A DNA stretch of 57,494 nucleotides, taken from IMG/VR virus record IMGVR_UViG_3300006198_000004; one strand, 5' to 3'. Below, one piece after another: positions 6,184-57,494 of the stretch. The DNA is from a virus. The notes under the pieces were generated by a model. The model did not search any database. It saw only the letters and a program-made list of their open reading frames with translations, and was not told the origin of the DNA. The translations under genes were made by a program, and so were the position numbers. Each line of letters begins with the position of its first letter. Positions within the stretch are counted from its first letter, which is position 1.

Positions 6184-6798
6184 TTATTCAAGGTGGCCGC
6201 CCACGGTGAAATTGTAGGCATAGGCTTCAGCCCACAATTCCACGAATTGCTTGCCAAAGTATTCTGCCTTTTCCTCGGTGTCAAGGCACAAGCGGAACGC
6301 CCCATACGCATACGCCCACGAGCTACGACGGCGCGCAAGCAGAGAACCGAAACCCGCAAGCGCGCCAGCGCACGCATGGGCAGACAGGAGGGCACCCCGT
6401 TCATCATCGCTCATGTTGGAGATTTCGCCGGGGGTCCAGAGTGCCATTACCGGGTACCACCACACTTTGCTACCGTCAGCCGTGGGCTGGCATTTGTTCT
6501 CGCCGCCCCATAGAGCTTTGCAAATATGCTCCAGCTTCATTTGGGCGATAATATGGTTAGGTACTCCGGCGGCTACGAGCTTTTCAACGTCCAGACTTTC
6601 GCCAAGAGCAACGCAAGCGTCCTCGTAGGAGCGAATTGTGGTATAGTCTGAAAGACTTGGTGCTGGTCGGGAGGGTGTTGCAGTTGTTTCGTTATCCCCT
6701 ACGAGAACAGCGAGAATTTTGCGCGTGTTGTCATCGGCCATTGCATAAGCCGCCTCATAGTTCGCGCTTGTGATTTTGAGTTCTTTGTTTTCGCTCAT
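6184..6798 (-). CDS. DGR target protein 2 (small C-type-lectin-fold-like variable protein, no signal peptide)
   Basis: Residues GALLSAHACAGALAGFGSLLARRRSSWAYAYGAFRLC align with the TR-encoded GAILSANANNGANAGFGYLNANNRSSWTNANGAFRFY. The DNA differs from the TR only at TR adenines. Confidence 0.85.
   Translation of the reverse strand: MSENKELKITSANYEAAYAMADDNTRKILAVLVGDNETTATPSRPAPSLSDYTTIRSYEDACVALGESLDVEKLVAAGVPNHIIAQMKLEHICKALWGGENKCQPTADGSKVWWYPVMALWTPGEISNMSDDERGALLSAHACAGALAGFGSLLARRRSSWAYAYGAFRLCLDTEEKAEYFGKQFVELWAEAYAYNFTVGGHLE
6285..6398 (-). other. DGR variable region VR2 (remote)
   Basis: My hand alignment to TR 19998-20111 shows about 18 substitutions. All fall at plus-strand T positions of the TR, which are A on the coding strand. 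Confidence 0.85.
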
Positions 6799-13845: not shown

Positions 13846-13953
13846 CCCCCACACCCCCTATTTTAATATACATATACTCTTTTACTACTACTCTTAATAT
13901 AGTGTGTATATATACGCGCGCAGGCGCATTATGCGCGCAGGCGCGAGGCAAAA

Positions 13954-14329
13954 TTTTGCCTAAGCAAAACCGCCTAAAAAGTATCTTGAATTTCAGCGAC
14001 TTACAAATTTTGCTTAGGCAAAACGGTGATTTTGGGATTTTGCTTAGGCAAAAGTTGTGAATGTGTTGATTATCAGCGTTTTGCGAGTTTTGCCTAAGCA
14101 AAATTTTAGGGCGTGGAACATTTTGCCTAAGCAAAACCGAAAGCGCAAAGCATTGATTTTGTGGGTATTTCAAAATTTTGCCTAAGCAAAACGGGGTCGA
14201 AAAAGTGTGTTTGAGAGCCTATTTTTAGCCACTTTTTGCCCTAAAAATTCCGTGGAACATTTTGCTTAGGCAAAATCACCTTGAAATTATTTTGATATTC
14301 AGATATTTACAAATTTTGCTTAGGCAAAA
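13954..14329. repeat. Array of eight 16-bp palindromes TTTTGC-YTAR-GCAAAA
   Basis: Copies lie at 13954, 14008, 14038, 14088, 14121, 14176, 14260 and 14314, with a degenerate copy at about 14234. The array is non-coding and sits between convergent genes. It is flanked by an AT-rich tract (13860-13915) and a GC island (13916-13946). Confidence 0.85.
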
Positions 14330-14331
14330 CG

Positions 14332-15606
14332 CTATTTTTTAGGCTCGTCAACACTTGGTAAATCCAATGCCAGAAAATCAAGCACGGCGCGGTTGGCCGC
14401 ATCTATTTTATCCCAGCTCTTGCGAATGTAAATGTCGGTTACGCGCATATTCTCGTCAACATGGTTTAGGGCAGTATGCACCGTGTATTTATCAACCCCA
14501 GCGTCATTGTTGGCTATCGTAGCCCAACTATGCCGGGCCGCGTAAAACTCCAAATCATCAACGCCGATAATCTTACCTATGCGTTTCAATCCTTTGTTGA
14601 GCGCAGCGCAAAATGTATCGGTGGATGAATAGAGCCGATAGAAATTGAACACCCTTTGCCCCGTGGTGTCGCGGTACTTATCCACAAGAGCCTGCGCCTC
14701 CGGCTCAATCCTTATGGAGATTTCCGCTTTGTCGGCACGGCGGTTGCGTGTCTTTTGGCGTTGGTAGGTTATGCGGCCGTCCGCGATGTCGGTTGCGGCG
14801 AATAGGTCGGCGGCGTTCATGCCTACAAGAAAGAAACTCAGAAGAAACACGTCCTTTGCAAAATTGAACCGATTCACTCCGGGTTGTAGTATGGTCGTAT
14901 ATGGAACTTGCGCAAAAGCCCGCATCTGCTCGACTGACAAAGCGCGTTTGCGCGATAGCGAGGGCTTTGGTATCTCTACCTTGTTGAACGGAGAGAAAGG
15001 TATGCGGATAATTCCGGCTTCCTCATCGTTAAATTCTTTCTTAGCCCGGTTATACATTGCCCGGAGTTGCGCAAGATACAGGCTTTGGGCGCGGTCTCCT
15101 TTCTTGCAGTCCTTACGCGGTGGCTGCTTGGCTATCCATGCTATCCAGTCATTGAGGAATTGCACCGTGATTTCCTTAATGCTGACAACCTCACGCTCGG
15201 CAAATCGTTTCAGACTGTTTATTGCCACCTTGTAGGCTTTGGCGGTCCCGCCTCGTCCGTCTTTCTCCAGCTTGGCGATGAAAGCCTCGGTGTAGGCTAC
15301 TATATCCAAGTCAAAGGGTTTTTCTCTATCTTTTGCCAGCAACTCCACGACCTGCTCCACGGTCATATCGTCCAGACCCTCGCCCACGCTGTTGCATATA
15401 GCGCGATAGCGGCGCAATGTGTCCTCTACCATGTCGATGTACTTTTGGTTTTTGAGCTTGAGGGCGCGTGTCAAATCCTCTTTACCTACATACCACGGAG
15501 TAGAGAGATACTTTTTGCGCTGCTTGTGAGTAACGCGGATTTTTATGTTATAGGTGCCGTCGGCTCTCTTTTGATGAGCATACACCTCTGCTTTGAAAGT
15601 TGCCAT
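14332..15606 (-). CDS. int: Tyrosine recombinase (phage integrase, Bacteroidota type)
   Basis: The N-terminal arm-binding-like segment is MATFKAEVYAHQKRADGTYNIKIRVTH. The C-terminal catalytic region is ARHSWATIA...ALNH...TDIYI (Tyr). Confidence 0.9.
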   Translation of the reverse strand: MATFKAEVYAHQKRADGTYNIKIRVTHKQRKKYLSTPWYVGKEDLTRALKLKNQKYIDMVEDTLRRYRAICNSVGEGLDDMTVEQVVELLAKDREKPFDLDIVAYTEAFIAKLEKDGRGGTAKAYKVAINSLKRFAEREVVSIKEITVQFLNDWIAWIAKQPPRKDCKKGDRAQSLYLAQLRAMYNRAKKEFNDEEAGIIRIPFSPFNKVEIPKPSLSRKRALSVEQMRAFAQVPYTTILQPGVNRFNFAKDVFLLSFFLVGMNAADLFAATDIADGRITYQRQKTRNRRADKAEISIRIEPEAQALVDKYRDTTGQRVFNFYRLYSSTDTFCAALNKGLKRIGKIIGVDDLEFYAARHSWATIANNDAGVDKYTVHTALNHVDENMRVTDIYIRKSWDKIDAANRAVLDFLALDLPSVDEPKK

Positions 15607-15712: not shown

Positions 15713-15784
15713 TGTAGCCCTGCGGGGAATCGAACCCCGATTTAAGGTTTAGGAAACCCTCGTTCTATCCGTTGAACTACAAGG
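15713..15784 (-). tRNA. tRNA-Arg(CCT)
   Basis: I folded the cloverleaf by hand:
- acceptor AGCCTTG/CAGGGCT;
- D arm GTTC-AACGGATA-GAAC;
- anticodon arm AGGGT-TTCCTAA-ACCTT;
- T arm CGGGG-TTCGATT-CCCCG;
- discriminator A, with no encoded CCA. Confidence 0.85.
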
Positions 15785-15937
15785 CTTTATGTAGTCTAAT
15801 CAATGTGTCGGCTCTAAAACATTCACTCGGTAAACAAAATTTGCTCTCAAATTTTGCGTTCAACCCGGAATAGATGTTTAGGAAACTCCTATTTTAACTT
15901 TGATTATCAACCAGATACGAGGCTAATTCGTTATTTC

Positions 15938-17938: not shown

Positions 17939-18351
17939 CGGTTTCTCTTTTTACCACGTTTGTAGAAAGCGAAATTATCCTTGTCGGCCTGCGTTATCTC
18001 GGTCTTGGGAGAGAACACATTAAAGCCAAACATATTGCCGTAGCTTACCACCTTGATAACGGCACGGAAAGGGAATTTGCGATTTGGGTTGCAAAACACA
18101 TTCCGCAACTTTTTACTGTCGGTGAAAAACGCGGATTTGGCCGCACCCTCACCATAAGCTACAAGCAAGCGGTCTCCATTCTCGGTTGCGCGAGTGGTAC
18201 ACCCGGTAAACACAGTGATTTGGTTAACCACTGCGTCTATCGGGGTGTAGTCGCAATCGAAAAGGTCGGAGCTTGTTACAGATTCGTCCTCAACGAAATC
18301 CTCTATTTCCTCATCTATCATAAGTCCATAGGGATATTGAGAGTGGCACAA
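17935..18351 (-). CDS. Hypothetical protein
   Basis: The ORF is in the operon. I recognise no motif. Confidence 0.45.
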   Translation of the reverse strand: MCHSQYPYGLMIDEEIEDFVEDESVTSSDLFDCDYTPIDAVVNQITVFTGCTTRATENGDRLLVAYGEGAAKSAFFTDSKKLRNVFCNPNRKFPFRAVIKVVSYGNMFGFNVFSPKTEITQADKDNFAFYKRGKKRNR

Positions 18352-18788
18352 TCGCTATCCACCATATTGCGGATAGCCAGACGGTCGCGCAAAAAGTCCT
18401 CGTAGGGCTTCTTGTATTCTTTGGGTAGCAGACCCAGCACTGCGCTCTGATACTCGTTCACCAGCTTGCTCTCGGTGTTGGCCGAGTACTTGGCAGATAG
18501 CAGGGTGCTGAAAATGTTGTCTGCGGTCGTGGGATATTCCACACGGAGGCTGTCGTACTGGAACATCTTGCCTGTTGCAGTCTCCGGGTCGGTGGCGATT
18601 GTTACGCCGCCCATGTCATCCTTGACAACATCAACCTCTACGATGTTGTGGTTGTAGAGTACGGTACCTTGCCCGTTGTTATACGGGTCAATTACCTGCG
18701 GCCGTGTTTCCGATAGCAGCCCGATTGATAAAATACTTTTTTCCATTTTGAATAACGGTGTTAAAGATGTTTTCTTTATGTTGCTCAC
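18318..18788 (-). CDS. Hypothetical protein (start uncertain; overlaps the RT 3' end)
   Basis: The ORF is in the operon, with an alternative ATG at 18746. It does not resemble a helical-bundle Avd. Confidence 0.4.
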   Translation of the reverse strand: MSNIKKTSLTPLFKMEKSILSIGLLSETRPQVIDPYNNGQGTVLYNHNIVEVDVVKDDMGGVTIATDPETATGKMFQYDSLRVEYPTTADNIFSTLLSAKYSANTESKLVNEYQSAVLGLLPKEYKKPYEDFLRDRLAIRNMVDSDCATLNIPMDL

Positions 18789-19911
18789 TACACCTTAAAG
18801 CCCACCCGTATTCCGAGGGGAATAGATGTTTAATGTCTTGTTGGTCGCGGATAGGGTTGTTGCGGGCCACCTTGATTGATTTCTTGTAGAATCTCAAAAG
18901 TATGCTCTTACGCATCAACACGCCATAGTGGTTTTGCTTGAACCCCACATAGTCAATGCTCCTATCATCAACCGGGAAAATCTGCCAAGTGTGCTTAAAC
19001 TCCACTTTTAGCTCCGCAGCCAGATATAGCCCCGCCATGTCGAGAACGAAATGCAGTGCAACCGAGCTTTCAGCCAGAAACACCATATCATCCATGTAGC
19101 GGAAATAATAGAGCTTGCATCCGAATTTGAGCCTTACCAACGCCGCCAATTCCTCAACAACCCAGTGGTCGAAATATGCGAAATAGAGATTGGCTAAGTA
19201 TTGGCTGGTGTAGTTGCCTATTGGCAGACCTTTTTCTTTACCGTTGCTATCTATAATCTTATCTAACAGCCTTAAAAGTTGTTCATCCGCAATGGTTATG
19301 CGGATTATGAGCTTGAGGGCGGCGTGGTCTATATTGTCGTAGCATTTTTTAATATCGGTCTTGAGGCACATTCTCGTACCTCGTTTGTCGCGTTTTAGAG
19401 CGTGGCGCACGTCAAGCATACATTTGTGAGTGCCTCGGCCCTTGATACATGAATAGGTATGCTCAATAAATATGTGGGTCCAGTGCTGCCCCAGCACGTT
19501 TATGATGCAATGGTGAATAATCCTATCTGGAAAGAACGGAGCAATCATAATGTCGCGCTCTTTCGGGTCATATATTTTCTTTACGCGATACTCGCCCGGC
19601 TGGTATGTTTCATACCTTAACATAGCCCATAGCGCATCCATATTCTCCAATATGTGTTCATTGAACCGCTTTATATCCGAGTGGTCGCCTTTGCCTTTCT
19701 GCGCCATATATTGAGCGCGGCAAAGATTCTCACAAGTATATAGCAGCCAATACACATTATACAGCTTTTTGGTCGGTGAACAAAAGAGTTTTCCAGTGTC
19801 CCCGATATAAAGCCCGCAATCCTCAAAGTCGGAATATTGAGGTTGATATGTATGCGTCTTTTTGCTCATTGTGCCGTTAGTCAAAAACAGAGTTTTGGAT
19901 TTCCTACTCAC
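18688..19911 (-). CDS. DGR reverse transcriptase
   Basis: It has the catalytic motif YMDDMVF (YxDD), the DGR-type motif LPIGNYTSQYLANLYF, and an adjacent TR/VR pair. Confidence 0.92.
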   Translation of the reverse strand: MSRKSKTLFLTNGTMSKKTHTYQPQYSDFEDCGLYIGDTGKLFCSPTKKLYNVYWLLYTCENLCRAQYMAQKGKGDHSDIKRFNEHILENMDALWAMLRYETYQPGEYRVKKIYDPKERDIMIAPFFPDRIIHHCIINVLGQHWTHIFIEHTYSCIKGRGTHKCMLDVRHALKRDKRGTRMCLKTDIKKCYDNIDHAALKLIIRITIADEQLLRLLDKIIDSNGKEKGLPIGNYTSQYLANLYFAYFDHWVVEELAALVRLKFGCKLYYFRYMDDMVFLAESSVALHFVLDMAGLYLAAELKVEFKHTWQIFPVDDRSIDYVGFKQNHYGVLMRKSILLRFYKKSIKVARNNPIRDQQDIKHLFPSEYGWALRCSEQHKENIFNTVIQNGKKYFINRAAIGNTAAGN

Positions 19912-19995
19912 ACTGTCTTAATCACTATTTTTTTACCAAGAGGTAAGGTGTCGGCGGTCAACAGTCTGAAATATCTTATTCAAAGAATTGAAACC

Positions 19996-20111
19996 ACGGT
20001 AAAAGCGGAACGCCCCATTCGCATTCGTCCACGAGCTACGATTGTTCGCATTCAGATAACCGAAACCCGCATTCGCGCCATTGTTCGCATTGGCAGACAG
20101 GATGGCACCCC
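19996..20111 (-). other. DGR template region (TR)
   Basis: It is homologous to VR1 and VR2. It is adenine-rich on the minus strand, with Asn AAY codons (ANANNGANAGFGYLNANNRSSWTNANG). Confidence 0.88.
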
Positions 20112-20221
20112 TGACCGCCGACACCCGTATTTCGTTTTGCGTTAATCCGTTTTATTTCATTGTATTACATATTAGTTTGACAATATTTTCGTTGCTCCGT
20201 GTTCCGTTGTTTTGCAGTCCG

Positions 20222-21586
20222 TCAAAAACGGCACAAGCGGACCGCCCCAAACGCACCCGTCCACGAGCGACGATGGGTCGCATACAGAACACCGAAACCC
20301 GCAAGCGCGCCAGAGGTCGCAAGGGCAGACAGGAGGGCACCGTACCAGCCCGAAGCATTGACACCAGCCTGCCAGAGATAATCACACAATCCTTGATTGG
20401 AGCTGGCTCCTACACTTGTGGGGAAAGTGAAACCGTCATAGGAAAAGCCGAAATTCCACTGATAGCCATCGCTACGGGGTAGGTCGGTGATAGCAACGTA
20501 GCCGTCCGGCACAGTTGTTGCGTTGTCGGCCGGGGACGTAAATTTGGTAGGGTCAGAGCAGCCATAGGCCGTTGTCTTTCCATTTTCACTATCCGGCGAA
20601 TAGTGGATAAGAACGTCATCGGCCAAGAACCACAAGTATTCATACGGGGCTTCAAGTCCACGATAAGAGTTGACTTGCACAACCTTGTCGCCGCCGGTCC
20701 AGCCTTTGATTGTATAAGACACGCGGCCCGTGTTGTTGCCGAGGGTTGCAGTCACGCCGCAGGGGATAAACGGCCTATAACCGCCCCATGTGTTCCACTG
20801 GCTGCCGTCAACAGCGGGACCACTGCCGAGGCCGCCTTGATGAAAGCCATCAGCCGTGAGCGTTTCGTTGTAGGTGTCCTGACAGTGGAGAGAAGCATAT
20901 TCGATGCGCTGGAGCCATGCAATTTCCATATAGGCACGAGCCATGCCTAAGTGAGTGCCATTCTTGCAAGCCGGCCTTGCGCCGGCCTTAGAGATTGAGG
21001 TGCGGGGCATACCGAGCTGAGAATTGTATGTGCCGTCCTTGCTTGCGTCCGAGGCACCGCTGCCGCCACGGAAATTAGTAGCGTTGGGGAGCAACGACAA
21101 AATGCCGTTTGCATCGCGCAAAAGCTCTCCGTCTGCCCCCCACTGGAGCCAGCACCCGGAAACGGCCGTATTGTTGGCAATGTCGATAGTCGCGCCCCAC
21201 GGCGATAGGGTCTTTCGGGTCATACGCACAAAGCCGGGCAGAGCATACTCGGAGATAGCCAAAGCCCACTGTGTGCCGTTCACCTCAAAGCGGGCATAGT
21301 ATTCCGGCTTTTCAAGCATTACATTTCCGTCCGTTGTGTCGAGCTTTGCGGCCGCCCCGGAATCCTTTTTACGAGAATCGTTCTGGTGGAGATAGTATTT
21401 TACCGAGCCGTCCGTGTTCTCAACAAAACGCCTCAGTTTCTTTTGGATAGGGAGTGTGCGGTGCAAGTCCATGTTGCCGATACGGGTCAGCAAATAGTCC
21501 TTGCTGGTAAAATCGCCTTGCACACCATACCACATATCGTATGGATATTGCGGCTTAGTGGAGCCGCTGCCTAAGATTAAGCCCAT
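20222..21586 (-). CDS. DGR target protein 1 (tail-fibre/receptor-binding-like, C-terminal C-type-lectin-fold VR)
   Basis: The VR lies at the extreme C-terminus (GALLSALATSGALAGFGVLYATHRRSWTGAFGAVRLCRF*). The gene is positioned after the tail tip genes. Confidence 0.8.
   Translation of the reverse strand: MGLILGSGSTKPQYPYDMWYGVQGDFTSKDYLLTRIGNMDLHRTLPIQKKLRRFVENTDGSVKYYLHQNDSRKKDSGAAAKLDTTDGNVMLEKPEYYARFEVNGTQWALAISEYALPGFVRMTRKTLSPWGATIDIANNTAVSGCWLQWGADGELLRDANGILSLLPNATNFRGGSGASDASKDGTYNSQLGMPRTSISKAGARPACKNGTHLGMARAYMEIAWLQRIEYASLHCQDTYNETLTADGFHQGGLGSGPAVDGSQWNTWGGYRPFIPCGVTATLGNNTGRVSYTIKGWTGGDKVVQVNSYRGLEAPYEYLWFLADDVLIHYSPDSENGKTTAYGCSDPTKFTSPADNATTVPDGYVAITDLPRSDGYQWNFGFSYDGFTFPTSVGASSNQGLCDYLWQAGVNASGWYGALLSALATSGALAGFGVLYATHRRSWTGAFGAVRLCRF
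20228..20341 (-). other. DGR variable region VR1 (3' end of adjacent target gene)
   Basis: My hand alignment to the TR shows about 17 differences at TR adenines and 2 at non-adenine positions. Confidence 0.85.
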
Positions 21587-39272: not shown

Positions 39273-39902
39273 TTATTTAGCGGTTATTGTTTCCAGCAAT
39301 GCGTCAGCGGCTTCGTCAACCTGCTTTTCGCTTGCCGATTTTGCACCCTCGGCTTTGTCGGAAATAAGGCCGTTTGTGATACAATCCTGTCGGAGTGCTG
39401 CCACGGCGGTTTCCACGTCCTCATCATCAGCAATGGAATTGCCGAGGCGGTCGCGGAGAAAAGCGGGGATTTTGTGCTTTTCAAAAGCTGCGTTGATTTC
39501 GGCCTTACGCGCCTCGCGGCTACGTTCAGCTTTCAAGTCGTTCAGCTCTTTTTCCATTGCGGCAATACGCTCATCGGAGTTATCACCGGGCTTTGTCTTG
39601 CCCTTGCCCTTTGTGCCTTTGGTGGCGGTGTCATCGTCCGTGTCATCGTCCGTGTCATCGTCATCTTTGGCGGGTTTGGTCTTACCATTGCCCTTTGCTT
39701 TCTGCGCCCAGCGTGTAGCCTCACCCTGAGTTTCGGTTGCTACATCAGCTATAAGGGTTGCAGTCTTTTCGATTGCCTCCTCATCGGTAGAATCATCCTC
39801 AATGCCTCCACCGAGCTGCTCGGTTAGCTTATCGAGGTACTTCTCCGATAGGCGGGTGTCCTTAGTCTTTTCCTTGACTTTTGCCCTAAGTGCTTTGTTC
39901 AT
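39273..39902 (-). CDS. Scaffolding protein
   Basis: It is acidic and helical, contains a DDDDTDDDTDDDT run, and sits upstream of the capsid gene. Confidence 0.6.
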   Translation of the reverse strand: MNKALRAKVKEKTKDTRLSEKYLDKLTEQLGGGIEDDSTDEEAIEKTATLIADVATETQGEATRWAQKAKGNGKTKPAKDDDDTDDDTDDDTATKGTKGKGKTKPGDNSDERIAAMEKELNDLKAERSREARKAEINAAFEKHKIPAFLRDRLGNSIADDEDVETAVAALRQDCITNGLISDKAEGAKSASEKQVDEAADALLETITAK

Positions 39903-53992: not shown

Positions 53993-55114
53993 TTATTTCT
54001 TTTTTGCGTTGATAAAATCGTGAATATAGAGCAATCCATGTCGGCGGCAAAAGGCTTTAATCTCATCGCCACCGCCATAAACTACAAGATTGGGGAGTTC
54101 AAGCCCGCTTATCTCCTGCGCTACCTGTAAATCGCTCTTGAGGCTTTCAAGCCATCCGTCAAGCCCACGAGTGAAAAAGGCGTTGTAGCCTTTCGGAATA
54201 CCCATTTTGTTGTATTCGATAAACTTGTGGGCTACATTAAGGTCGGCGTAAACTTTGATACCACACTCTTGCAAGTAGCGACAAAGCCACCGCTTTTTGT
54301 AGATAAGGCTTATTCCGTATGCGATTGGCGTTTGGTCGTGGCAGCTACAATTAGGCTCTACCACCGCCTTACAACCGCTTGTGAGCAAATTAATCGGGTC
54401 TTTGAACAAAGCCTCAAAGCGGTAATCATCCACATAGAAATGATAGGTCGCTACATCCTTTCTTAGACGGCTATTCGCGCCCCACGGAGTTAATGGCAAT
54501 TCAACCTTGCCGGCTTGCATTTCAAGCAAGAGATTGGGGATTTCGTAAATATTATCGCTTTCGTATAGCACATCTTTCAGCATGGAGCGATAAAAAGCCT
54601 CTTTATCATCGCCTCCATTCTCTCCGTCATCGTCTGGCTCATTGTCATTGTCGCTATCATCGCCCTCGTCCCCATCATCGGAGTTGTCAAAGGGCGCGAG
54701 GGTTGCAGTCTTGGAGGCCGTCTTTTTCTCTTTCGGAAAATCCAGACCTATAAAGCCAAAATCAACATCACCAAAAGCCGGGTCTGTCTGTAATGCGCCA
54801 AAATCCCACTCTCCATTGTTGATGTTGGAGCGTAGGATAAGGTCGGTGCGTTCATCATCCGACAACTCGGAGTAAAGCACGGTCGGGACCTCTTTTATTT
54901 TGAGCCTTTTTACAGCCTTGAGGCGTTGGTTCCCGTCCAGAACGATAAGGCGGCCGTCCTGTTCCTCTAATGCCATAGGCCGGTGTTCCCAGAATCCGTT
55001 GAGCTTGATTGAATCAACAACACGAGCCAGCCCGTCCTTGTCGATAGTTCGCGGATTGTTTGGCAGAGGGTGCAGGTCGGCAACCTTGCGATATTTCATT
55101 GGCTCACATTTCAT
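53993..55114 (-). CDS. ParB-like nuclease domain fused to a DUF4417-like C-terminal domain
   Basis: It has an N-terminal ParB motif (LHPLPNNPR...VLDGNQRLKAV), an acidic linker and a conserved C-terminal domain (YHFYVDDYRFEALFKDP). Confidence 0.65.
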   Translation of the reverse strand: MKCEPMKYRKVADLHPLPNNPRTIDKDGLARVVDSIKLNGFWEHRPMALEEQDGRLIVLDGNQRLKAVKRLKIKEVPTVLYSELSDDERTDLILRSNINNGEWDFGALQTDPAFGDVDFGFIGLDFPKEKKTASKTATLAPFDNSDDGDEGDDSDNDNEPDDDGENGGDDKEAFYRSMLKDVLYESDNIYEIPNLLLEMQAGKVELPLTPWGANSRLRKDVATYHFYVDDYRFEALFKDPINLLTSGCKAVVEPNCSCHDQTPIAYGISLIYKKRWLCRYLQECGIKVYADLNVAHKFIEYNKMGIPKGYNAFFTRGLDGWLESLKSDLQVAQEISGLELPNLVVYGGGDEIKAFCRRHGLLYIHDFINAKKK

Positions 55115-57325: not shown

Positions 57326-57494
57326 TTATCGGTTATCGCCCGTGCCGTGGATAGTACCCCGGAGCTTACGGGCAGCTATTTTTGCGAGATTGAGAGTTGC
57401 CACCTCGGAAAGTGAGGAACCTATTGCCCTTGCAAGATTGGCGGTGTACCAAAGCACATCGCCCAATTCGTAGGCTATTCGGTCCCGTGTGTCC
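57326..57494 (-). CDS. MazG-like pyrophosphohydrolase, C-terminal part (continuation of 1-238 across the junction)
   Basis: My translation gives ...ARAIGSSLSEVATLNLAKIAARKLRGTIHGTGDNR*, with the stop at 57326-57328. Confidence 0.75.
   Translation of the reverse strand, partial: DTRDRIAYELGDVLWYTANLARAIGSSLSEVATLNLAKIAARKLRGTIHGTGDNR
57418..57494. repeat. Terminal overlap, copy 2 (identical to 1-77)
   Basis: It is an exact 77-nt match to the start of the window. Confidence 0.9.

Follow-up and report, generated by a model that had tools for sequence, protein, structure and literature searches.

The 57.4-kb genome of a temperate phage of gut Bacteroidales very probably carries an active diversity-generating retroelement (DGR) with two target genes. 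The window referred to throughout is the whole stretch of DNA analysed, which is 57,494 nt in length. On its minus strand, a tail protein gene with a variable repeat at its 3' end (VR1) is followed by a gap of about 110 nt, the template repeat (TR) and the reverse transcriptase (RT) gene (Table 1). This order, given in a first-pass annotation of the same DNA, is borne out by the ORF layout and the repeat alignment. A second variable repeat (VR2) is located in another gene, outside the tail module. DGRs are an already known class and the cassette itself is an ordinary member of it, apart from the extra small target protein; the main cassette should be seen as one more well-documented gut-phage DGR. 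No evidence was found that contradicts the DGR assignment. The adjacent cassette is common to about 75 IMG/VR loci, and the two-target layout is also present in phage Versailles, LoVEphage and seven IMG/VR genomes. Points absent from the first-pass annotation are that the second target is not a tail gene, that no Avd was found in a Pfam scan and that the TR lies inside a conserved RNA helix.

Table 1. Coordinates of the DGR features in the window
Feature	Position	Strand	Evidence or remark
Target gene 1, tail protein of 454 aa with C-terminal VR1, presumed to bind the receptor	20222..21586	-	PHROG 5302 'tail protein', E 6e-107
Variable repeat VR1, in target 1 codons 416-454	20224..20341	-	118-nt ungapped match to TR; runs into stop codon
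IMH-like 3' boundary of VR1, GGGGCGGTCCGCTTGTGCC	20230..20248	-	Fixed marker differing from TR copy
5' arm of long-range RNA helix enclosing TR	20113..20125	-	Pairs with 19959-19947
Non-coding template repeat (TR), with its 21 mutagenic adenines in 20091-20018	19992..20109	-	Repeat alignment
IMH*-like 3' end of TR, GGGGCGTTCCGCTTTTACC	19998..20016	-	Repeat alignment
3' arm of TR-enclosing helix, in TR-RT spacer	19947..19959	-	Covariation
Stem-loop UUACC-UCUU-GGUAA directly after helix, then A-run to ~19923	19933..19946	-	5 pairs, 2 with compensatory change
Rest of conserved spacer RNA to RT start, including conserved AGUGYRAGUA	19870..19932	-	Alignment of relatives
DGR reverse transcriptase, 393 aa (probable start)	18688..19869	-	ORF open back to GTG 19911 (407 aa); Pfam RVT_1; PHROG 1423
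Target gene 2, 204-aa acidic protein, no recognised fold	6184..6798	-	PHROG 11581, function not assigned
Second variable repeat, VR2, in target 2 codons 135-174	6279..6396	-	13.7 kb from TR
IMH-like 3' boundary of VR2, GGGGCGTTCCGCTTGTGCC	6285..6303	-	Repeat alignment

Template and variable repeats

The alignment of TR, VR1 and VR2, with mismatches tabulated by TR base, gave adenine-specific differences that are not spread over the four bases. Over 118 nt without gaps, the TR and VR1 have 23 mismatches, 18 of them at the 23 TR adenines (hypergeometric p 1e-12), which agrees with the earlier reading that the differences are mainly at coding-strand A. Between the TR and VR2 there are 24 mismatches over the same ungapped length, and 19 of these are at one of the 23 TR adenines (p 7e-14 by the same test). 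The position of the TR was correct in the first-pass annotation, its limits being refined from 20111–19996 to 20109–19992. That about 17 of roughly 22 TR adenines differ in VR1 holds in so far as most are changed; the actual counts are 16 of 21 in the mutagenic tract and 18 of 23 over the 118 nt. In the tract, VR1 also has one T>G at 20058, and VR2 is changed at 17 of the 21 adenines with no change at any other base. The differences outside the tract are at TR 20103, which is private to the window, at 20002 and 20000, which form a 3' marker, at 20010 (T>G, VR1 only) and at the terminal bases where the homology ends. The T>G changes at 20058 and 20010 are private to VR1 and are unexplained by adenine mutagenesis.

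The 3' marker reads TTTTAC in the TR and TTGTGC in both VRs. This difference is kept in related phages and the VR marker is invariant in populations. The IMH-like boundary segment that contains it is GC-rich and may play a part in homing. Efficient homing in BPP-1 needs a hairpin after the IMH, and a GC-rich hairpin 3' of the IMH is reported in only 34% of DGRs in the survey data given in PMC5758913. The 3' flanks of both VRs were searched for a GC-rich hairpin or cruciform, and neither flank gave a fold that stood out significantly from shuffled controls (z = -0.7 and -1.5).

The reported richness of the TR in AAY codons was also found, with 10 of its 39 codons of this type. Both VRs are in frame in their target ORFs. 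Such AAY-rich coding allows approximately 4e12 DNA variants and 3e13 protein variants per target, with no stop codons created.

Natural variation of the targets

Activity of the DGR in the present genome is suggested by its sister contigs. Nine places encode an identical RT and have between them eight distinct VR1 sequences, which differ only at TR-adenine positions. The TR is identical in six of these nine places, the exceptions being the window, with its private C>A at 20103, and two eroded variants. The cluster of target 1 proteins has 449 members, and in the ten close members that were compared the differences are confined to VR1 codons and, except for two singletons, to TR-adenine codons.

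Diversification of target 2 is seen in 120 near-identical proteins, in which the high-diversity columns are the TR-adenine codons only. Each of the ten AAY codons shows 14–15 residue types, while TAT gives Y, S, C or F, ACG gives T, A, S or P and AGC gives S, R or G. There is low-level variation at four further positions, the other columns being invariant or nearly so. Population variation is thus confined to TR-adenine codons in both targets apart from a few low-level changes, the pattern that the first-pass annotation had proposed to look for. Together with the adenine-specific mismatches and the DGR-type RT, it upholds the proposal of mutagenic retrohoming.

Eroded TRs and chimeric contigs spanning the repeats were seen among the related contigs. 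These illustrate that DGR repeats can mislead assemblies.

Reverse transcriptase

The ORF at 19911–18688 that had been assigned to the RT was confirmed; its start is most likely the ATG at 19869, giving 393 aa, rather than 19911. This ATG is favoured because it is conserved as the start in phage Versailles and is called on related contigs, and it would place 19911–19870 in the conserved spacer RNA. In a public assembly collection, 643 blocks list a protein identical to this 393-aa form. Both motifs claimed for the RT, YMDDMVF and the DGR-type LPIGNYTSQYLANLYF, are present in the translation. In the numbering of the 407-aa ORF, IGNYTSQ is at 231–237 and YMDD at 272–275, the signature being [I/V/L]GxxxSQ and not QGxxxSP. 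R119 aligns with R74 of the BPP-1 enzyme bRT. In bRT, R74 and I181 promote adenine mutagenesis (PMC7826257), and the residues at both aligned positions are conserved here.

The best match in the PDB is BPP-1 bRT (8ub7, E 1.6e-30), with the group II intron protein LtrA at 3e-10. NCBIfam scores are 104 bits for group II (TIGR04416, cut-off 300), 40 for retron St85 (cut-off 235) and 53 for Drt2 (cut-off 390), with a weak sub-threshold similarity to Drt3. Grouping of the RT, another of the checks proposed earlier, therefore places it nearest to the DGR enzyme and far below the group II, retron and Drt cut-offs.

Those weak similarities to group II, Drt2, Drt3 and retron RTs could suggest that the repeats are ordinary paralogous or recombining sequence lying beside an RT from an unrelated intron, retron or defence system. 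This has a negligible probability and is already refuted by the tests described, since every NCBIfam score is far under its cut-off and the nearest structural homologue is a DGR RT. It is refuted equally by the adenine specificity of the mismatches, by the confinement of population variation to TR-adenine codons and by an Rfam scan of the window, in which the sole match was a tRNA and no intron or retron RNA was found. A different proposition is that the element is a DGR by descent that is now inactive in this genome, where the VR/TR differences would be fossils of earlier activity. The private C>A in the TR at 20103 and the two private non-adenine changes in VR1 fit this, and the eroded TRs of some sister contigs, which have A>N changes and indels, suggest that decay does occur in the lineage. 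In the window, however, the RT ORF is intact with every catalytic and signature residue present, the TR has kept all 21 tract adenines and the RNA helix pairs perfectly over 14 bp. In addition, the RT protein is identical to that of contigs whose VR1 sequences all differ. Loss of activity is on this evidence very unlikely, and the element is best regarded as an active DGR.

RNA structure around the template repeat

The TR is enclosed by a 13-bp helix that is conserved in 16 related phages. Compensatory changes are present at 11 of the 13 pairs, 96% of cells are paired, and the observed covariation score was reached by none of 500 shuffles. In some relatives, the loop of the stem-loop after the helix contains an inserted hairpin. 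The succession of duplex, stem-loop and adenosines has the same order as the cPRT Stop of BPP-1. The spacer at 19870–19932 may have a function, for example as a priming site; the priming nucleotide could not be located from the sequence alone.

To our knowledge, RNA architecture of the cPRT-Stop type has previously been surveyed only in DGRs that contain Avd. The covariation shows such an architecture in a lineage without detectable Avd, which bears on how the template is positioned by Avd-independent DGRs.

These elements suggest a mechanism in which an RNA of approximately 20125–19870 would be transcribed, with the TR closed off by the helix between the spacer and the sequence just upstream of the TR, followed by the short stem-loop and the A-run. 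The RT would copy the TR to cDNA, with nucleotides inserted at random opposite each of the 21 tract adenines, and the cDNA would replace the homologous repeat in the two genes. Direction would be set by the 3' IMH-like segment, which has fixed differences from its TR counterpart. By analogy with BPP-1, cDNA synthesis may be self-primed from the spacer, the helix may be a stop or positioning element and the integration may be IMH-directed.

Accessory proteins

Avd is present in approximately 74% of DGRs and is not universal. A Pfam scan for Avd (PF05635) of 51 small or neighbouring ORFs gave no match; these were eight neighbours and 43 small ORFs, the latter concatenated into two pseudo-proteins. 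Avd proteins are poorly conserved, therefore a divergent member might go undetected by the Pfam model. With no Avd detected, the element seems to belong to the accessory-free 'architecture A' DGRs.

A 'CH1' accessory gene is described for Avd-less DGRs of Bacteroides in the account given in PMC5758913. The acidic ORF at 18318–18788 (142/156 aa, pI 4.9), just downstream of the RT, was considered as a candidate of this type and fits CH1 by description only. Its homologue in Porphyromonas phage005b directly follows the homologue of target 1 with neither RT nor TR, and it is absent from the more distant RT relatives. The ORF is therefore treated as a phage gene.

The two target proteins

Target 1 was taken for a tail-region protein in the first-pass annotation, and this is supported by its PHROG 5302 match and by its predicted structure. 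The AF2 model (pLDDT 78) has TaqVP (5VF4, E 2e-4) and Mtd (1YU0-4) as its best PDB matches, the likeness to TaqVP being modest, with a TM of about 0.37–0.44 and 9% identity. VR1 corresponds to the C-terminal ligand-binding face of a TaqVP/Mtd-like protein, so its diversification would be expected to shift host-receptor specificity, the role being read across from BPP-1.

Target 2 shares with target 1 only the 37 residues encoded by the repeat. VR2 is not at the 3' end of its gene, since thirty codons follow it in the ORF 6798–6184. The gene is co-oriented with recombination and replication genes, its neighbours being NinB, an MBL-fold hydrolase, RecT and a replisome organiser (assigned by synteny with Versailles). 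The AF2 model of target 2 is confident (pLDDT 89), yet a Foldseek comparison with the PDB returned no structure at E<=2 and a profile search against PDB sequences gave no match. In BFVD the matches are uncharacterised gut-phage proteins only. A C-type-lectin-fold variable domain is possible in target 1, whose model matches TaqVP and Mtd; the target 2 model matches no solved structure.

By analogy with the target of BPP-1, target 2, which looks like a cytoplasmic protein, may be a second ligand-binding protein, and it is more likely to be non-virion than structural. If instead it belonged to the virion, for instance as a second subunit for receptor binding or at the fibre tip, with its gene lying apart from the tail module by chance, the DGR would serve host recognition alone. 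This is possible, if somewhat doubtful. Characterised phage DGR targets are almost all tail or receptor-binding proteins (PMC8144416), the 37-residue binding module given to target 2 is exactly that of the tail protein, and the Versailles homologue of target 2 was labelled 'tail protein' by annotators on HHpred evidence, a label that is due to the shared VR. The location of the gene argues the other way: in Versailles, in the divergent LoVEphage and in the window alike, it is found with genes for recombination, replication or DNA metabolism and not in the tail module. Outside the VR, there is no detectable similarity to tail proteins or solved folds, and the PHROG family has no assigned function. 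A non-virion protein thus remains the preferred reading. The more specific suggestion that target 2 is a DGR-diversified intracellular binding protein, never in the virion, which is co-expressed with the recombination and replication genes and has a hypervariable surface that tracks variable host factors, is speculative and on balance unlikely. If true, the protein might for example neutralise defence proteins or capture host machinery, the function of phage DGRs would extend past receptor recognition, and a templated 37-residue module would have been grafted onto a scaffold unrelated to the known C-type-lectin variable proteins.

Target 2 is conserved in at least three divergent Bacteroidales phage lineages and is massively diversified in nature. 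Remote targets were, by their own statement, invisible to large DGR surveys (PMC8144416), therefore this family is a tangible candidate for phage hypermutation put to a use other than receptor recognition. Versailles is a cultivable prophage of Bacteroides caecimuris I48, a strain of the OMM12 mouse-gut model, and could be used as a test system.

Comparison with known systems

The BPP-1 DGR (mtd-avd-TR-brt) is arranged in the same way, with the TR and then the RT after a target that has its VR at the 3' end. Adenine-specific mutagenesis, AAY-rich TR coding and an IMH/IMH*-type 3' boundary are common to both, as are a homologous RT (E 1.6e-30) with the IGxxxSQ motif and the R74 and I181 equivalents. 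In both, a duplex of upstream sequence and spacer brackets the TR and is followed by a stem-loop and adenosines (the 'cPRT Stop'). The target is in each case a tail protein, the target 1 model here matching Mtd itself. The present DGR differs in having no avd detected between VR and TR or elsewhere in the genome, no significant GC-rich hairpin after the IMH, and an RT that is 65 residues longer (393 aa versus 328 aa). It also has two targets, the second lying at a distance of 13.7 kb and bearing no relation to the tail protein beyond the VR.

A target-TR-RT core without an accessory gene corresponds to the 'architecture A1' of Wu et al. 2018 (PMC5758913), which by their figures makes up 29% of their set. 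The same paper reports Avd-less RT lineages in Bacteroides and relatives, and prophage DGRs with an adjacent and a non-adjacent target, the second within 50 kb of the RT. The second-target family PHROG 11581 and its non-tail position are not described in the available parts of that paper. Among variable proteins, target 1 resembles TaqVP (5VF4) and the 'domain group 2' variable proteins of Bacteroides prophages (bioRxiv 10.1101/2024.11.15.621889) in being prophage-encoded with no other recognisable domain. Target 2 differs in that it matches neither TaqVP, Mtd nor any solved structure.

Bacteroides phage Versailles (ON453897) is syntenic with the window, its RT being 70% identical, target 1 70% and target 2 51%, although the match at the DNA level is restricted to the TR/VR region (approximately 80%). 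A DGR is mentioned neither in the Versailles record nor in the searched literature that names this phage, and the LoVEphage publication notes only an RT next to a tail fibre gene. Both Versailles and LoVEphage (MW660583) nevertheless have a TR, VR1 and VR2 with adenine-only mismatches, LoVEphage differing in that its target 2 is on the strand opposite to the TR.

Repeats and mismatch pattern

The window carries a typical, active phage diversity-generating retroelement (DGR) of a known class, and the first-pass annotation was correct in calling it one. When the whole window was scanned with adenines masked, a single repeat copy (VR2) turned up besides the template repeat (TR) and the variable repeat VR1. 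TR and VR1 differ at 23 of 118 nt, and 18 of the differing positions are among the 23 adenines of the TR (p = 1e-12, hypergeometric), and TR and VR2 differ at 24 of 118 nt, 19 of them at the adenines (p = 7e-14). The mutagenic tract contains 21 adenines, 16 of which are changed in VR1, together with one T>G, and 17 in VR2, with no other change in the tract. The window alone has A at TR position 20103, through a C>A change. Since C is present there in both VRs and in all other contigs with an identical reverse transcriptase (RT), this "adenine mismatch" does not stem from mutagenesis. Fixed differences at the 3' end, TTTTAC in the TR and TTGTGC in the VRs, are alike in both VRs, phage Versailles and seven other genomes, and are what an IMH/IMH* boundary is expected to show.

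Features of the DGR and of its surroundings in the window
Feature	Position	Strand	Remarks
Terminal direct repeat	1-77, 57418-57494		perfect
VR2	6396-6279	minus	inside target 2
Target 2 ORF	6798-6184		204 aa
84 nt direct repeats	13950-14033, 14256-14339		upstream of integrase
Tyrosine integrase	14332-15606		adjoins complete tRNA-Arg gene
tRNA-Arg(CCT)	15714-15786		complete gene beside integrase
Acidic ORF	18318-18788		downstream of RT
ORF with RT motifs	19911-18688	minus	downstream of TR
Inverted repeat around TR	20125-20112, 19960-19947		perfect, 14 bp
TR	20109-19992	minus	110 nt downstream of target 1
Mutagenic tract	20091-20018		within TR
VR1	20341-20224	minus	last 118 nt of target 1; ungapped alignment to TR
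Target 1 ORF	21586-20222	minus	454 aa
12 nt periodic repeats	39618-39677, 54614-54679	plus	

Reverse transcriptase

The RT ORF matches Pfam RVT_1. Its best homologue of solved structure is the DGR RT of the Bordetella phage BPP-1 (E 1.6e-30), followed by the group II intron protein LtrA (3e-10). In the alignment to the BPP-1 RT (bRT) the catalytic aspartates and the residues opposite R74 and I181 are conserved, and IGNYTSQ fits [I/V/L]GxxxSQ, the signature of DGR RTs (PMC7826257). The NCBIfam models for group II, retron and Drt RTs give scores far under their cut-offs, and Rfam found no intron or retron RNA in the window. The start is probably the ATG at 19869, giving 393 aa; the Versailles RT begins at the matching position, and related contigs have gene calls of this length.

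Variation in natural populations

In the public assembly collection, 643 blocks list exactly this 393 aa RT. Nine places with this RT were examined, including the window's own contig (Ga0080696_100188, JGI metagenome 3300006135). Six share one identical TR, and the nine contain eight distinct VR1 sequences that differ only at TR-adenine positions. The 90% cluster of target 1 has 449 members; ten close members differ only inside VR1, in TR-adenine codons except for two singleton changes. Two T>G changes in the window's VR1 are private. A search with target 2 yielded 1,611 proteins, of which the best 120 (94-97% identical) were aligned. Among these 120, the ten AAY codons of VR2 each show 14-15 residue types, TAT gives Y/S/C/F, ACG gives T/A/S/P and AGC gives S/R/G. 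M118, W161, A167 and G135, four positions that lack a TR adenine, vary at a low level, and the other columns are essentially invariant. Restriction of population variation to TR-adenine positions, proposed earlier as a check, was found for both targets.

In some sister contigs the TR itself, directly 5' of the RT, is altered by A>N substitutions together with an indel. The indel is a 6 nt deletion shared by TR and VR1 in L087-L089 and L103, and 1 nt in L104; all five retain the 3' IMH*. These are either real TR erosion, through VR-to-TR conversion or self-homing, or assembly chimeras between the repeats. Among four others (L064, L067, L055 and L057), some TRs are AAY-poor or only about half of the TR/VR mismatches fall at adenines; these cassettes may be decaying or reshuffled. 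Five short IMG/VR contigs (L036, L038, L040, L045 and L047) have NinB and a target 2 homologue fused straight to the RT, with about 13 kb left out in between; these contigs probably result from chimeric assembly across the VR2/TR repeat.

The two targets

Target 1 matches PHROG 5302 ("tail protein") and closes the tail module, ahead of the holin, amidase and spanin genes. The best matches of its AF2 model (pLDDT 78) are TaqVP and Mtd, both variable proteins of DGRs, a likeness that fits "domain group 2" among the variable proteins of Bacteroides prophages.

Target 2 is acidic, with no signal peptide or hydrophobic segment seen on reading the sequence by eye. Its gene has NinB on one side and a replisome organiser on the other, with RecT and an SbcC-like ATPase on the same strand. 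Its family is PHROG 11581 (222 clusters at 50% identity). The model is confident (pLDDT 89) and resembles only uncharacterised gut-phage proteins, with no PDB match by model or by profile search of PDB sequences. In profile-profile comparison just the 37 VR residues align between the two target families. VR2 is internal, with two helices and a strand after it. Other phages also have the second target. Versailles carries a homologue after NinB, and seven IMG/VR genomes have an RT and a 60%-identical homologue in which VR2/TR mismatches are adenine-only, plus a single T>G marker. In LoVEphage, a different, 71 kb phage, the homologue is 31% identical, sits with DNA-metabolism genes and has 19 adenine-only mismatches to the LoVEphage TR, about 15 kb away on the opposite strand. 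Target 2 might conceivably be an intracellular hypervariable binder, a reading considered doubtful.

RNA around the template

Folding of the TR region brought out the perfect inverted repeat around the TR, which was tested as a helix on 16 related phages (alignment A4). RNAalifold gives a 13 bp helix with compensatory double changes in 11 of the 13 pairs. Of the helix cells 96% are paired, against 29-66% with the partner slid, and none of 500 shuffles reached the observed covariation score. Directly 3' is a stem-loop, UUACC-UCUU-GGUAA, whose loop holds an inserted hairpin in some relatives; next come an A-run and a conserved stretch that reaches the start of the RT. Duplex, stem-loop and adenosines occur in the same order in the cPRT Stop, an RNA element seen by cryo-EM in the complex of BPP-1 RT, Avd and RNA (bioRxiv 10.1101/2023.10.23.563531). 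By analogy, the helix would position the template and limit cDNA extension.

Accessory genes and phage setting

No domain of the accessory protein Avd was found in eight neighbouring proteins or 43 further small ORFs scanned. The acidic ORF downstream of the RT resembles "CH1" as described, a reading rejected because a homologue occurs in Porphyromonas phage005b without TR or RT. There (L083, 3627-5429) it begins 3 nt after a 54%-identical target 1 homologue with a similar C-terminal ...FRLCRG end, with neither TR nor RT between. The ORF is accordingly taken as a phage gene. The phage005b locus is a DGR-less relative, and shows, with the homologues adjoining in their absence, that TR and RT act as a 1.5 kb insertion module.

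The ends of the window are identical over 77 nt, which makes it a complete phage genome, assembled as a circle of 57,417 bp. An 83%-identical target 1 homologue is found on a 57,418 bp contig of Barnesiella sp. WM24. Bacterial contigs L087 and L088 hold the same phage in integrated form, where the spanin gene is followed by genes of the host (PglZ response regulator, Fic and MscL). From these copies and the integrase, the phage is temperate; its attachment site is probably near the tRNA-Arg. The two 84 nt repeats, 80% identical and each flanked by TTTTGCCTAAGCAAAA-type palindromes, are possible attP arm sites or operators. The short GTCATCGTCCGT-like periodic repeats, which have no relation to the DGR, may encode acidic repeats on the minus strand.

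Comparison with known DGRs

DGRs that pair an adjacent target with a non-adjacent one are, in general, already known from phages (PMC5758913); the same paper places accessory-free DGRs in architecture A (29% of the set) and records Avd-less lineages in Bacteroides. Remote targets were undetectable in the largest DGR survey (PMC8144416), and two papers that name Versailles, like the LoVEphage paper, contain no description of these DGRs or of the second target. Two features go slightly beyond the routine. One is a conserved, heavily diversified target 2 of unrecognised fold, outside the structural module and with a putative role. The other is a cPRT-Stop-like RNA of putative function in an Avd-less DGR; the cPRT Stop was predicted in 207 DGRs, with Avd present in all (bioRxiv 10.1101/2023.10.23.563531).
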